64,000 nucleotides of DNA. Origin: an uncultured Chloroflexia bacterium. GTDB lineage: Bacteria > Chloroflexota > Limnocylindria > Limnocylindrales > CSP1-4. The stretch is from NCBI GenBank assembly GCA_963764515.1, contig CAVXSS010000002.1:1313044-1377043 (forward strand), written 5' to 3'. The position numbers and the translations under genes were made by a program. Shown one piece after another: positions 42,947-46,522 of the stretch. The notes below the pieces were generated by a model, which was not told the DNA's origin, did no database searches, and saw only the letters and a list, made by a program, of their open reading frames with translations. Each line of letters starts with the position of its first letter. Within the stretch, counting starts at the first letter, position 1.

Positions 42947-43486
42947 ATGACCGTCGACTGGATCGACCTGCTGCCGATCCTCGCGTTCGTCGCCCTGGCA
43001 GCGGGCCTCGCGGTCGTGTTCCGCCGGACGGGATCGATCGTCGCCCGCACGCGAGAGGCGGAAGGCTTCCGATCCTCCGTCCGTGACCTCGCGGCACGCA
43101 TCGACGTCTCGCTCGCCGGCGCGTCGAGCCGTATCGACCAGGTCCGACACCACCAGCTGACGCCCGAGGACATCTCCGACACGCTCGTGGTCGCTTCCGA
43201 TGCGGTGGATCGCTATCTTGCCGAAGCGCGCGCCCTGCACGCGCCCGCGGCCGCGGTCGAGATCCGCGATGCCCTCATCGCGCAGCTGGAGCGGGCAGGC
43301 CGGGCGCTCGCGACGGTCGAACACGGGGCCGCGATCATGTCCACGGTCCGAGGTGGGGCGCGCCAATCGGAGGCGCAGACCTCCATCAAGCGAGGCTACC
43401 TGAATCTCCTCCACGCCAGGGAGGCGATCGCCACCGAAGCGAGTCGTGCCGACGACCTCGCGACCCGCCGCGACCACACCATGTAG
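42947..43486 (+). CDS. hypothetical membrane-anchored protein
   Basis: N-terminal TM (LLPILAFVALAAGLAVVF) followed by a helical soluble domain. No family assignment. Confidence 0.5.
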   Translation: MTVDWIDLLPILAFVALAAGLAVVFRRTGSIVARTREAEGFRSSVRDLAARIDVSLAGASSRIDQVRHHQLTPEDISDTLVVASDAVDRYLAEARALHAPAAAVEIRDALIAQLERAGRALATVEHGAAIMSTVRGGARQSEAQTSIKRGYLNLLHAREAIATEASRADDLATRRDHTM

Positions 43487-43498
43487 TGGTATGCTCGG

Positions 43499-43527
43499 GT
43501 CACACCACAACAGCTAGTGGTGGTGAC
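43499..43527. promoter_or_regulatory. imperfect inverted repeat upstream of nrdR (candidate operator)
   Basis: GTCACACCAC-aacagctagt-GGTGGTGAC lies 17 nt upstream of the nrdR ATG. It is not AT-rich like canonical NrdR boxes, so its identity is unknown. Confidence 0.3.
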
Positions 43528-43543
43528 CGACCGAAGGAGCGCG

Positions 43544-44023
43544 ATGCGTTGCCCCCAGTGCGGCGAGCGCGAGACCCGCGTGGTCGACTCCCGCGACCTC
43601 GATGACTCCGCCACGATCCGTCGTCGACGCGAGTGCTCGTCCTGTGCGATGCGATTCACGACCTACGAGCGCGTCGAGGCTGCCCGCCTCGTCGTCATCA
43701 AGCGTGACGGATCGCGCCAGGAGTTCGACCGCGACCGGCTCGTCTCCGGTCTTCGCAAGGCGCTGACTCGCCGGCCGGTGCCCTCGGGCGCGGCCGAGGC
43801 GGCCGCGGACGCGATCGAGGCCGAGCTGCGCTCGTCGGGTACGAGCGAGGTGCCGTCCTCGAAGGTCGGCGCGATGGCGATGGATCAGCTGCGCGCCATC
43901 GACCAGATCGCCTACATCCGCTTCGCCAGCGTCTACGAGAGCTTCGAGGATCTCGAGGCGCTCAAGCGCGAGGTCGACAACCTGTACGAAGAGCGAGGCT
44001 CGCCCGGAGCCCTCGAGCCATGA
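43544..44023 (+). CDS. nrdR: transcriptional repressor NrdR
   Basis: MRCPQCGERETRVVDSRDLDDSATIRRRRECSSCAMRFTTYERVE zinc ribbon plus ATP-cone. The ATG at 43544 is preferred over the table start at 43517. Confidence 0.9.
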   Translation: MRCPQCGERETRVVDSRDLDDSATIRRRRECSSCAMRFTTYERVEAARLVVIKRDGSRQEFDRDRLVSGLRKALTRRPVPSGAAEAAADAIEAELRSSGTSEVPSSKVGAMAMDQLRAIDQIAYIRFASVYESFEDLEALKREVDNLYEERGSPGALEP

Positions 44024-45657
44024 GCGTCCTCTCGGATCGCGACATCCGCGCCGAGCTCGAGAGCGGTCGCGTCGTCATCCGCCCGTACGACTCGCACGAC
44101 CTGCAACCATCGTCGGTGGACCTGCATCTCGACCACAGCTTCCGTGTCTTCCGAAACAACCGCTATCCGTACATCGATGTCCGGGCGCCGCAGCCGGACC
44201 TGACCGAGCTGCTGACCGTCGAGGAAGACGAGCAATTCATCCTGCACCCCGGCGAGTTCGTGCTCGGACAGACCCACGAATGGGTGGAATTGCCGGACGA
44301 CCTTGTGGCCCGGCTGGAGGGCAAGGCGCTTGCCCTCGATACGCCGATCCCGACGCCATCCGGCTGGCGAACGATGGGCGACCTGGCGCCGGGCGACCAC
44401 GTCTTCGACGAGACCGGTGCCCCGACGGCCGTGGTGGCAGCAACGCCCCGGATGGTCGGCCGCCCGTGCCGCGAGGTGGTGTTCTCGGATGGGACGCGCA
44501 TCGTCGCCGATGCCTCCCATCAGTGGGTGACCGTCGACAAGAACGGTCGACATCAGGGACGCTCGCGGGCCGCGATCCGGACAACGGACGAGATCGCCCG
44601 ATCGCTGCGGATCCGTGGCGAGATGAACCATCACGTCCAGCTCGCCGGGCCGGTCCAGTACCCGCCGCGCCTGGACCTGCCGATCGAGCCGTACACCTTC
44701 GGCGCCTGGCTCGGTGACGGGACGACGACAAAGGCGGAGATCACATCGGTCGATGAGGAGGTTCTCGAACAGATCAGCGGGGACGGGTTCACGGTCAGAC
44801 GGCTGTCGTATGCGCCGCATGCCTATCGGATCGGAGAGGCTGGCCACACTCGCGATCTGGCCACGGGCCGCTATGCGCGGAATTCGTCCCTCTCGAGCCG
44901 GCTGCGATCCATGGGCGAGCTCGACGGCAAGTTCGTGCCCCGCCCGTATCTCGAGGCCGGCGTCGCTCAAAGGCTGGCGCTGCTCCAGGGACTCATGGAC
45001 ACCGACGGCTTCGTCGACGATATTGCCGGGCGCTGCGAGTTCACGAACACGAATGAGGGCATCGCCGACGCGGTCGTCGAACTAAGCGCGAGCCTTGGCT
45101 TCCGCCCGGTCAAGTCGATCGGACGGGCGACGTTGAATGGCGTCGACCACGGCCCGAAGTATCGAGTGAAGTTCACGCCGGATCGACCCGTCTTCCGACT
45201 CCCGAGGAAGCTGGCGCGCCAGAAGCCGGCCGACGCTCGGTATCACCGGTTCCGCGCCATCGACGTCGTTCTCGATGTGCCCTCGGTCCCGGTCCGCTGC
45301 ATCCAGGTCGCCGCACCCAGCGGCATGTTCCTCGCCTCGAGGTCGTTCATCCCGACGCACAACAGCTCACTCGGCCGGCTGGGCCTGCTCATCCACTCGA
45401 CGGCGGGCTACGTGGATCCCGGTTGGAAGGGCAACCTTACGCTCGAGCTGTCGAACGTCGCGAACCTGCCGATCGCCCTATACCAGGGGATGCGCATCGG
45501 CCAGATCTCGTTCTTCCGCATGTCGTCCCCGGTGGAGCGGCCATACGGATCGCCCGAGCTCGGGTCGAAGTACCAGGGGCAGTCGGAGCCGACGGCATCT
45601 GCCTTCCATCGCGATTTCGACGCCGGTCGCAAGACCGGGGAGCCGTCGCGGAACTAG
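44020..45657 (+). CDS. dcd: dCTP deaminase (Dcd) interrupted by an in-frame intein (545-aa precursor; exteins 102 + 97 aa)
   Basis: N-extein MSVLSDRDIRAELESGRVVIRPYD...HPGEFVLGQTHEWVELPDDLVARLEGK and C-extein SSLGRLGLLIHSTAGYVDPGWKGNLTLELSNVANLPIALYQGMRIGQISFF are collinear with Dcd (EGK|SSLxRLGL junction). The intervening 346 aa have intein blocks. ATGA overlap with nrdR. Confidence 0.85.
   Translation: MSVLSDRDIRAELESGRVVIRPYDSHDLQPSSVDLHLDHSFRVFRNNRYPYIDVRAPQPDLTELLTVEEDEQFILHPGEFVLGQTHEWVELPDDLVARLEGKALALDTPIPTPSGWRTMGDLAPGDHVFDETGAPTAVVAATPRMVGRPCREVVFSDGTRIVADASHQWVTVDKNGRHQGRSRAAIRTTDEIARSLRIRGEMNHHVQLAGPVQYPPRLDLPIEPYTFGAWLGDGTTTKAEITSVDEEVLEQISGDGFTVRRLSYAPHAYRIGEAGHTRDLATGRYARNSSLSSRLRSMGELDGKFVPRPYLEAGVAQRLALLQGLMDTDGFVDDIAGRCEFTNTNEGIADAVVELSASLGFRPVKSIGRATLNGVDHGPKYRVKFTPDRPVFRLPRKLARQKPADARYHRFRAIDVVLDVPSVPVRCIQVAAPSGMFLASRSFIPTHNSSLGRLGLLIHSTAGYVDPGWKGNLTLELSNVANLPIALYQGMRIGQISFFRMSSPVERPYGSPELGSKYQGQSEPTASAFHRDFDAGRKTGEPSRN
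44326..45363 (+). mobile_element. intein (class-3-like, WCT motif) with LAGLIDADG homing endonuclease, inserted in dcd
   Basis: Block A ALALDTPIPTPSGW (Ala1). Block B RIVADASHQW (W at B12). Endonuclease motifs YTFGAWLGDGTT and LALLQGLMDTDGFV. Block F VPVRCIQV (Cys at F4). Block G FIPTHN followed by Ser+1. Confidence 0.8.
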
Positions 45658-45661
45658 CGCC

Positions 45662-46522
45662 ATGGCCATGAACGACGCGGTCGACTGGCGGGCGGACCTG
45701 GGCGGCGGCGTCCATGTCGCACTCGTGCAGGCGGGTGTCTTCCGCTCCGACGCCGGCACGCTGTTCGGGCCGGTGCCGTGGGTCCTGTGGGGCGGGCTCG
45801 TCGAGGACGAGGTCGACGACAAGCGACGACTGCTCCAGGCGCTCAACTGCCTGCTCATCGAAACCACGGGCGGCCGGGTGCTCGTCGAGACGGGCATCGG
45901 CGAACGCGTCGACGACAAGACCCGCGCGATGCGGGCCTACGAGGGCCCATGGATCGTGGCCGCGCTGGAGACGGCCGGGTTCCTGCCGGAGACCGTGAAC
46001 GTCGTGGCGATGAGCCATCTCCATTTCGACCATGCCGGCGGGCTCTTGCGAGCCGACGGATCGCGCGCCTTCCCGCACGCGAAGATCGTCGCCCAGAAGG
46101 CGGAGTGGGAGGTGGCCCTCGGCGACAATCCACGCCTCGTCGCCTCGTACGTGCAACCGGAACTCGAGCTCGTGAAGGATTGGGGCGCGCAGGGCTGGGC
46201 CGACGGCGAGCGCGAGATCCTGCCCGGGGTATCGGTCATCCCGACCGGCGGCCATTCCACGGGCCACCAGGCGATCGTCGTGCGCGCACCGGGCGGCCGG
46301 ACGCTGGGCTTCTTCGGGGACCTGCTGATGCGGCCGTGGGCGGCGAACCCGCGCTGGGTGACGGCATTCGACGACTTCCCGCTCGATTCGGTCGCCCGCA
46401 AGGTCGAGCTTTTCGCGCAGGCCGTCGATGAGGACTGGACGATCGTGCTATCGCACGAGCAGCGGCACCCGATCGGTCGCCTCGTGCGTGACCGGGACCG
46501 GTTCCGCTTCGAACCCGAGTAG
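45662..46522 (+). CDS. MBL-fold metallo-hydrolase
   Basis: HxHxDH motif (SHLHFDHAGG) and downstream His/Asp ligands (GGHSTGH). 286 aa. Confidence 0.8.
   Translation: MAMNDAVDWRADLGGGVHVALVQAGVFRSDAGTLFGPVPWVLWGGLVEDEVDDKRRLLQALNCLLIETTGGRVLVETGIGERVDDKTRAMRAYEGPWIVAALETAGFLPETVNVVAMSHLHFDHAGGLLRADGSRAFPHAKIVAQKAEWEVALGDNPRLVASYVQPELELVKDWGAQGWADGEREILPGVSVIPTGGHSTGHQAIVVRAPGGRTLGFFGDLLMRPWAANPRWVTAFDDFPLDSVARKVELFAQAVDEDWTIVLSHEQRHPIGRLVRDRDRFRFEPE

Follow-up and report, generated by a model that had tools for sequence, protein, structure and literature searches.

The Interrupted dcd Gene

The 64-kb stretch of contig CAVXSS010000002.1 analyzed in this study (hereafter the window) contains a dCTP deaminase gene (dcd) that directly follows nrdR and precedes a gene for a metallo-β-lactamase (MBL)-fold protein (Table 1). 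The dcd gene of this soil or freshwater Chloroflexota (Limnocylindrales) bacterium is, in all probability, interrupted at its active-site serine by a class 3 intein with an apparently intact homing endonuclease. In an NCBIfam profile search, the 545-aa open reading frame (ORF) scores 203.7 bits against the dCTP deaminase profile TIGR02274 (cut-off 92.8). Both this profile and Pfam DCD match the ORF in two pieces, with a break after residue 102 and a restart at residue 448/449. The insert of 346 aa thus spans residues 103–448 (nt 44326–45363), and the boundaries given in a first-pass annotation of this DNA are exact. The same annotation placed the C-extein at aa 444–545, which has to be corrected to aa 449–545. 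All motifs that it quoted are found at their places (EGK↓ALALDTP, HQW, VRCIQV, PTHN↓SS, YTFGAWLGDGTT, and LALLQGLMDTDGFV; the arrow marks a junction between extein and intein or, in an intein-free sequence, the insertion point).

The joined exteins (residues 1–102 and 449–545) form a protein of 199 aa that aligns without a gap to residues 3–187 of the Mycobacterium tuberculosis Dcd (2qxx; E = 1.3e-69). The alignment is contiguous across the junction, as had been anticipated for a true intein host, and over the stretch RLEGK↓SSLGRLGLL both proteins are identical. In the ungapped alignment with the Escherichia coli Dcd (1xs1), the residue preceding the insert corresponds to R110, Ser+1 to S111, the next Arg to R115, and the Glu of the TLELSN motif to E138. 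We take S111, R115, and E138 (E. coli numbering) to be the catalytic residues of Dcd. With a profile score above the curated cut-off and counterparts of all three residues, the host protein is a dCTP deaminase, and its active-site loop is split by the insert since the insertion point adjoins the S111 counterpart.

Table 1. Features of the nrdR-dcd region. Positions are those of the window; strand + is the forward strand.
Feature	Position	Strand	Evidence
NrdR-box-like palindrome 1, CCACACCATGTAGTGG	43474..43489	+	consensus match
NrdR-box-like palindrome 2, CCACAACAGCTAGTGG, 31 bp from box 1	43505..43520	+	consensus match
nrdR, zinc ribbon and ATP-cone	43517..44023	+	Pfam Zn_ribbon_NrdR 1.6e-18, ATP-cone 1.2e-18
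dcd precursor ORF (N-extein, intein, and C-extein)	44020..45657	+	545 aa plus stop
N-extein, Dcd residues 1–102, C-terminus ...RLEGK	44020..44325	+	Pfam DCD match to residues 3–102; gapless 2qxx alignment
Class 3 intein, 346 aa, Ala1 (ALALDTP...) to ...PTHN	44326..45363	+	PDB match to solved class 3 inteins
N-terminal splicing half, blocks A and B, ~aa 1–100 (approximate boundary)	44326..44625	+	~70% identity to Msm/Mch DnaBi1 over intein residues 1–70
Cys48 codon, counterpart of DnaBi1 Cys48 (disulfide partner of the catalytic Cys)	44467..44469	+	alignment; PMC6195587
Block B core DASHQW: Asp62, His65 (B:10), Trp67 (B:12)	44509..44526	+	alignment
LAGLIDADG homing endonuclease domain, ~aa 101–300 (approximate boundaries)	44626..45225	+	LAGLIDADG_3, PI-SceI match, Foldseek, dN/dS 0.13
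LAGLIDADG motif 1, YTFGAWLGDGTT, intein 123–134, catalytic Asp131	44692..44727	+	sequence; Asp invariant 121/121
LAGLIDADG motif 2, LALLQGLMDTDGFV, intein 217–230, catalytic Asp227	44974..45015	+	sequence; Asp invariant 121/121
C-terminal splicing half, blocks F and G, ~aa 301–346 (approximate boundary)	45226..45363	+	intein 314–346 align to DnaBi1 107–139
Cys325 codon, block F:4, predicted initiating nucleophile	45298..45300	+	aligns with DnaBi1 Cys118
Thr344-His345-Asn346, block G:5–7	45355..45363	+	alignment
C-extein, Dcd residues 449–545 (SSLGRLGL...) plus stop	45364..45657	+	profile match resumes; gapless 2qxx alignment
Ser+1 codon (AGC), C-extein nucleophile by homology, E. coli Dcd Ser111 counterpart	45364..45366	+	ungapped 1xs1 alignment
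MBL-fold gene, first base 4 nt behind the stop codon of dcd	45662–46522		position kept in nearly all Limnocylindrales loci

The Splicing Domain Resembles Class 3 Inteins

A phmmer search of PDB sequences matched intein residues 1–86 and 314–346 to the DnaBi1 inteins of Mycobacterium smegmatis (Msm; 6bs8, E = 4e-31) and Mycobacterium chimaera (Mch; 6rix and 6riy). The functional residues of DnaBi1 comprise the Trp-Cys-Thr (WCT) triplet Trp67/Cys118/Thr137, the block B Asp62-x-x-His65, the C-terminal His138-Asn139, and Cys48 (Kelley 2018, PMC6195587). All of them have an aligned counterpart in the Dcd intein: A1, C48, D62, H65, W67, the Cys at block F position 4 (F:4), and the terminal Thr, His, and Asn coincide with those of the solved DnaBi1 inteins. 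Specifically, the Msm DnaBi1 counterparts of W67, C325, and T344 are W67, C118, and T137; in the Dcd intein, HQW occupies positions 65–67 and VRCIQV contains Cys325. Intein position 1 is an Ala and thus none of Cys, Ser, or Thr, and the block B His (H65), the C-terminal His-Asn (H345, N346), and a Ser at +1 are all present. In addition, Ile326 and Phe335 are the counterparts of Ile321 and Phe330 in the DnaB intein of mycobacteriophage Bethlehem (MP-Be), which are both needed for splicing (PMC2807308). The class 3 assignment made in the first-pass annotation from the Ala start, the Trp at B:12, the Cys at F:4, the Thr before His-Asn, and Ser+1 is therefore supported by homology to DnaBi1.

Domain profiles, which had been suggested as a further check, gave a divided answer. 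The endonuclease profile LAGLIDADG_3 was matched above its cut-off, whereas the splicing-domain profiles of Pfam and NCBIfam stayed under threshold (Hint_2, 13.7 bits; intein_Cterm, 12.3 bits). Because the search of PDB sequences is decisive, we attribute the sub-threshold scores to the fact that these profiles cover class 3 inteins poorly, and not to the absence of a HINT domain. There is no second intein copy within the 64-kb window.

A Two-Motif LAGLIDADG Endonuclease Is Nested in the Intein

The central part of the intein scores 29.2 bits against LAGLIDADG_3 (Pfam cut-off 22.5), and residues 122–286 match the endonuclease part of PI-SceI in the phmmer search of PDB sequences (E ~7e-4). Both LAGLIDADG motifs are present together with their catalytic acidic residues. 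These observations corroborate the embedded two-motif endonuclease noted in the first-pass annotation; its remark that the element is potentially still mobile gains indirect support from purifying selection, a patchy presence, and a codon linked to occupancy at the +1 position, all of which are described below. The endonuclease core has a predicted local distance difference test (pLDDT) score of 70–88 within an AlphaFold2 model of low overall confidence.

One related intein, from an Acidimicrobiales locus (L042), has an in-frame deletion of 192 nt at nt 345–509, by which the first endonuclease half is partly gone while the splicing blocks are intact. This copy looks like an intein on its way to a mini-intein.

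Occupied and Empty Alleles in Limnocylindrales

A scan of GTDB with one genome per species yielded 78 loci (L001–L078). The intein is found in 46 of them (L001–L046), mostly metagenome-assembled genomes (MAGs) of Limnocylindrales; the actinobacterial occupied loci stem from one Gaiellales MAG and three Acidimicrobiia/Acidimicrobiales MAGs (58–61% identity). The remaining 32 loci (L047–L078) are intein-free dcd genes of Limnocylindrales with a size between 561 and 598 nt, most of them exactly 597 nt. Thirty-one empty alleles read ...EG(K/R)↓SSLGRLG, with EGK in 30 cases and EGR in one, and their DNA at this site is ...CTC GAG GGC AAG↓(TCN or AGY) TCN CTN GGC... As is typical for inteins, the host protein is contiguous once the insert is removed from the sequence, and intein-free alleles with the same junction exist. 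The gene order (a 179-aa ORF, nrdR, dcd, and the MBL-fold gene) is kept in both occupied and empty Limnocylindrales loci; the actinobacterial loci lack it.

On a tree built from nrdR and the MBL-fold gene, the basal lineages are all occupied and the derived lineages are mixed, with occupied and empty loci interleaved; the four nearest neighbors of the window (L047–L050) are all intein-free. Identities between inteins correlate less with those between hosts (Spearman correlation 0.41) than identities between exteins do (0.75). The inteins most similar to that of the window belong to L003 and L005, with host identities of 0.73 and 0.68; the intein of L001 is more distant, although this host is the nearest of the intein-bearing ones (0.85). 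The differences are small, and this mismatch between inteins and hosts is at most suggestive. Together with the shortened endonuclease of L042, these results fit a homing cycle that has long been running through gain, fixation, decay, and loss.

The intein-less junction 23-mer of the window flanks (GAGGGCAAGAGCTCACTCGGCCG) occurs in 28 metagenome contigs (L088–L115). Their dcd genes have 70–81% nucleotide identity to the window dcd and no nrdR or MBL neighbors, and no within-species polymorphism was seen among them. Identical potential target sites are therefore present in distant bacteria.

Conservation and Selection

The full-length protein with its intein is represented by more than 120 cluster representatives of 536–572 aa (79–89% identity). 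In the source databases they carry the plain name ‘dCTP deaminase’ and are assigned to Chloroflexota or Candidatus Limnocylindrales; the intein is never indicated. All 121 Dcd inteins compared share C48, D62, H65, W67, C325, T344, H345, N346, Ser+1, D131, and D227, and Ala1 is found in 120 of these (Ser in the other one). A further protein (P0149; 652 aa) is a read-through of frameshifted nrdR, dcd, and intein in another assembly, i.e., a gene-calling artefact and not a fusion.

For the 31 intein-bearing loci with an intein of 1038 nt, the ratio of nonsynonymous to synonymous divergence (dN/dS; method of Nei and Gojobori, NG86) is 0.17 for the exteins, 0.15 for the whole intein, and 0.13 for the endonuclease domain, with an intein dS above 1 that reflects deep divergence among the compared loci. 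As both exteins and endonuclease are under purifying selection, the intein is probably able to splice, and the nuclease is probably in use or was so until recently. The GC content of the intein (0.65–0.70) is the same as that of its flanks, and a recent arrival from a compositionally different donor is thus not indicated. The inteins of four loci (L030, L035, L041, and L044) are 1039–1040 nt long and are thrown out of frame by single-base indels. The four loci come from MFD MAGs, which are long-read assemblies, and these frameshifts may be sequencing errors rather than real decay.

A Serine Codon Linked to Occupancy

Occupied and empty alleles of Limnocylindrales differ in the DNA directly behind the insertion point. 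In all 39 occupied alleles the intein is followed by AGY TCN. The empty alleles are divided at the +1 codon (AGY in 15 and TCN in 16 out of 31), and have AGY at the +2 codon in nine out of 31. The association between codon and occupancy does not extend beyond nt +1 to +5 (Fisher p = 1.2e-7). Of the four occupied alleles that are actinobacterial, three carry TCY. Since AGY and TCN both encode Ser, this linkage cannot be explained by protein splicing. Possible causes are a preference of the endonuclease for certain targets, co-conversion of the neighboring bases when the intein homes, or descent from one invaded allele with a frozen Ser codon, which is unable to change between the two codon families.

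Related Inteins Reside Predominantly in P-Loop Proteins

A HMMER search of 1.84 billion cluster representatives returned 17,950 relatives of the intein at E ≤ 1e-3 and 4,254 at E ≤ 1e-30. We delimited 190 inteins in the best 150 proteins, and aligned them together with the window intein (191 sequences). At the junctions of the 190 related inteins, Lys is found at −1 in 148, Gly-Lys at −2/−1 in 122, and Ser or Thr at +1 in 186 cases; 144 start with Ala and 142 end with PTHN. In the alignment of 191 sequences, H65 and C325 are present in all, N346 in 190, W67 and T344 in 189 each, and C48 in 146. Cys48 is thus widespread in this family, although it was termed ‘non-conserved’ for DnaBi1 (Kelley 2018, PMC6195587).

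A Pfam scan of 56 host proteins identified AAA_25 (12), DnaB (9), and several terminase large-subunit families (four to seven members each), in addition to TraG-type coupling proteins, FtsK, and Toprim-helicases. These hosts are all P-loop NTPases, and DCD (4) is the sole non-P-loop host among the 56 proteins. In IMG/VR, related inteins were found only in the P-loops of primase-helicase and terminase genes, and the Dcd genes in this database are intein-free. Among cultured phages, the identity to the window intein is at most 40%, in a large terminase subunit (TerL). These hosts agree with earlier work, as the class 3 members described first were seen solely in helicase-like ATPases, mostly in P-loops (PMC2807308), and an insertion between Lys and Thr is the ‘classic’ P-loop intein site (PMC5050341). 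The Dcd intein has the corresponding GK↓S junction, but its host is an enzyme with a dUTPase fold and without a P-loop domain. Only one of the 26 Ser/Thr positions in Dcd follows Gly-Lys, and this is the occupied site. The resemblance between the Dcd site and the P-loop sites is located at the level of the protein junction, because the DNA common to the Dcd site and the phage P-loop sites is limited to GGN AAR↓WSN. As the same splice junction is offered, we infer that the Dcd site may have been colonized from a P-loop site.

All five Dcd inteins group together in a first neighbor-joining tree, and a single origin of the Dcd inteins is likely but not secure. A fragment of one further Dcd protein (P0159) contains the same class 3 intein and, after SSLGRLGLLIHS, a second insert right behind LLIHS (SLPASEQLLVLDDHG...VRVTAGHNLF). 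The latter looks like an intein of the class 1 type that occupies another Dcd site (HS↓T).

Proposed Mechanism and Alternative Readings

With high confidence, we interpret the insert, which lies between Lys102 and the active-site Ser of Dcd, as a class 3 (WCT) intein that harbors a two-motif LAGLIDADG endonuclease. By homology to the DnaB intein of MP-Be and to Msm DnaBi1, the following course can be proposed. The 545-aa precursor would be translated in an inactive state, which is expected because the active-site loop GK↓SSLGR is split. Cys325 (F:4), aided by His65, Trp67, and Asp62, would attack the bond between Lys102 and Ala1 to form a branched thioester, from which the N-extein would be handed to the hydroxyl group of Ser+1. 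Cyclization of Asn346, aided by His345, would then release the intein, and an O-N shift would complete the Dcd of 199 aa next to a free intein of ~38 kDa. The free intein or the precursor may cut empty dcd genes at ...GAG GGC AAG↓AGY TCN CTN GG..., with the subsequent repair copying the intein into the gene (homing). At its origin, the intein may have been transferred from the site of a P-loop ATPase to the Dcd site with the common GK↓S junction. Splicing, endonuclease activity, and this route are thus predicted features of the element.

Several observations weigh against parts of this reading. The AlphaFold2 model, which was computed from a shallow alignment (46 sequences with 76–88% identity to the query), is poor (mean pLDDT 59) and leaves residues 296–356 with the C-terminal splicing segment unmodelled (pLDDT < 35). 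The proposed active-site geometry, in which the block F Cys would lie beside both junctions, is consequently drawn from homology. A Foldseek search with this low-confidence model returned PI-SceI (8e-12), the TliVMA intein, the DnaBi1 structures (~1e-6), and I-DmoI (TMt 0.55), matches that are consistent with the sequence evidence. The synonymous divergence of the intein is not below that of the exteins (pS 0.60 vs. 0.47), and a recent sweep is therefore not indicated. Vertical inheritance combined with repeated loss can account for a large part of the patchiness. A 23-mer scan of metagenomes found no near-identical empty allele of the window lineage. Finally, bootstrap support for the grouping of the Dcd inteins is 63/100 for the four core members, and 30/100 when the divergent member P0152 is included.

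Part of these data would also suit a splicing-competent but immobile relic, which was already present in the ancestor of the Limnocylindrales and has since been inherited vertically and lost precisely in several derived lineages, with an endonuclease that is inactive or kept for another reason. The fully occupied basal lineages on the nrdR and MBL tree, the saturated synonymous divergence of the intein (at least as high as that of the exteins), its fully ameliorated GC content, and the deletion in the endonuclease of L042 speak for such a relic. However, an unused nuclease should decay, while the endonuclease domain has a dN/dS of 0.13 and keeps both catalytic Asp residues in all 121 copies. 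Vertical descent would also necessitate many independent precise deletions, and it sits poorly with an intein tree that follows the host less well than the exteins do, with the linkage of AGY at +1 to occupancy as a signal at the DNA level, and with the presence of the element in two phyla. We consider an immobile relic doubtful, though deserving of attention. An additional role, compatible with the mobile class 3 intein preferred here, would be that of a redox-gated switch. In DnaBi1, Cys48 and Cys118 form a reversible disulfide that blocks splicing (PMC6195587), and the aligned Cys48 and Cys325 of the Dcd intein might likewise pair under oxidative stress, which would pause splicing and the Dcd-dependent supply of dUTP/dTTP. 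The presence of Cys48 in 121 out of 121 Dcd inteins and 146 out of 191 family members, and a host gene in a likely NrdR-regulated dNTP operon, would fit this role. Against it, the argument proceeds by analogy, Cys48 is also required for the splicing of DnaBi1 (PMC6195587) so that its conservation can be explained without a sensor function, and many sister species do without the intein, which is hence dispensable. We regard the switch as rather unlikely.

The type of the intein, and its nature as an intein, are much less in question. Ala1 also occurs in the class 2 inteins of the KlbA type, and one of the 121 homologues has a Ser at position 1, which could point to a class 2 intein, in which the +1 residue attacks the N-terminal junction directly, or to a class 1 intein with a cryptic nucleophile. 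Against class 2, its members are devoid of the WCT triplet and show Asp at F:4 together with Cys at +1 (PMC2807308), whereas the Dcd intein combines Cys at F:4 and Ser at +1 with the Trp and Thr of the triplet. The nearest solved relatives are moreover proven class 3 inteins, and membership of any other class is highly improbable. A non-splicing insertion domain or a pseudogene, finally, could be suspected from the sub-threshold Hint_2 and intein_Cterm scores and from the single-base frameshifts in four related inteins. The latter are all from MFD MAGs with possible sequencing errors, and the homology to solved inteins is strong, with boundaries that are exact when compared with the empty alleles. 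Without splicing, the active site would remain split at Ser111, while the exteins of the occupied alleles are under purifying selection (dN/dS 0.17). We thus find a non-splicing insert barely credible.

Taking the class 3 intein with its endonuclease as the starting point, a more comprehensive scenario can be drawn. A class 3 lineage specialized in P-loops would have undergone a junction-guided ectopic transposition into Dcd, where EGK↓SS copies the GK↓S/T of its former sites, followed by homing among Limnocylindrales and Actinomycetota and by the establishment of a Cys48-Cys(F:4) redox trap on the dUTP/dTTP supply in an NrdR-regulated operon. In its entirety, this chain of events is tentative and unlikely to hold in every link.

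Comparison With Known Inteins

The closest solved relatives are the DnaBi1 inteins (also named DnaB-b; 6bs8, 6rix, and 6riy), with ~70% identity over intein residues 1–70 and 50–60% over the last 33–35 residues. Both they and the Dcd intein have Ala1, Cys48, Asp62, His65, Trp67, Cys at F:4, and Thr-His-Asn. Msm DnaBi1 is also followed by Ser at +1 and sits in the P-loop of DnaB (Kelley 2018, PMC6195587), and the inteins related to DnaBi1 have Lys at −1. The crystallized DnaBi1 forms are mini-inteins (the one from Msm naturally lacks an endonuclease), whereas a full LAGLIDADG domain is retained in the window intein, whose host is a non-ATPase enzyme with a dUTPase fold instead of the DnaB P-loop protein.

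The MP-Be DnaB intein, the founding member of class 3, and the class 3 inteins of mycobacteriophage TerL share with the Dcd intein the WCT triplet, the missing N-terminal nucleophile, and a Ser or Thr at +1. They are likewise full-length inteins with an endonuclease and of similar size (the block F Cys of MP-Be is residue 320), and those in the terminases of Cluster E align over all 346 aa with 40% identity. Their hosts are phage helicase or terminase ATPases, in contrast to the chromosomal location of the window element in a bacterium, and the MP-Be intein begins with Pro1 after Gln-1. PI-SceI (VMA1 intein) also contains a nested two-motif LAGLIDADG endonuclease and is, together with I-DmoI, among the closest solved endonuclease folds; it differs in being a class 1 intein (Cys1) with ~15–18% identity, and I-DmoI is a free-standing enzyme encoded by an intron.

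One dCTP deaminase intein has been described before, specifically in ORF069 of cyanophage vB_AphaS-CL131, and splices in E. coli (PMC6293099). This intein consists of HintN and an HNH_3 endonuclease (aa 133–483 of 555) and is not described as class 3 (PMC6293099). Given the CL131 C-extein of 72 aa, its insertion site differs from that in the window. Our search of the literature brought up neither a class 3 Dcd intein nor any intein of Limnocylindria, and the accessible part of Novikova et al. (2016) lists a ‘deaminase’ category without further detail. The novelty claimed in the first-pass annotation was overstated with regard to mechanism and architecture, which are well known, and in view of the different Dcd intein already published from a phage. 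The type of element is familiar, but the host gene and insertion site appear to be undescribed.

Class 3 inteins thereby gain a new host protein and a new site of insertion. A set well suited to studies of the homing cycle is available within one order, with dozens of alleles that are occupied or precisely empty at a conserved gene order; it also includes an endonuclease under purifying selection, one decaying copy, and a codon marker linked to occupancy. The GK↓S junction in common with P-loops provides a testable rule for landing sites. If the Cys48-Cys325 redox trap works as in DnaBi1, the maturation of Dcd would couple the synthesis of dTTP precursors to oxidative stress. Being full-length and naturally flanked by Lys at −1 and Ser at +1, this class 3 intein may also serve protein engineering.

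Operon Context

The stop codon of nrdR overlaps the start codon of dcd by 4 nt (ATGA). Directly upstream of nrdR lie two tandem NrdR-box-like palindromes; the 64-kb window has no other match to the NrdR-box consensus, and shuffled sequences predict 0.25. Using a pattern derived from the window's own boxes, we found at least one box upstream of nrdR in 52 out of 67 related loci, compared to three background matches in 450 kb; in 20 related loci a pair of boxes is spaced by exactly 31 bp. The arrangement suggests an autoregulated nrdR-dcd operon, and the MBL-fold gene probably belongs to the same operon as dcd. NrdR control of dcd, as proposed in the first-pass annotation, is hence plausible given the overlap of both genes and the tandem upstream palindromes, while its description of dcd as an essential gene finds no support in our analysis. 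The GTG start that was assigned mechanically to nrdR (nt 43517) overlaps the second box. The true start is probably the ATG at nt 43544, from which the protein begins with MRCPQCG, the usual N-terminus of NrdR.

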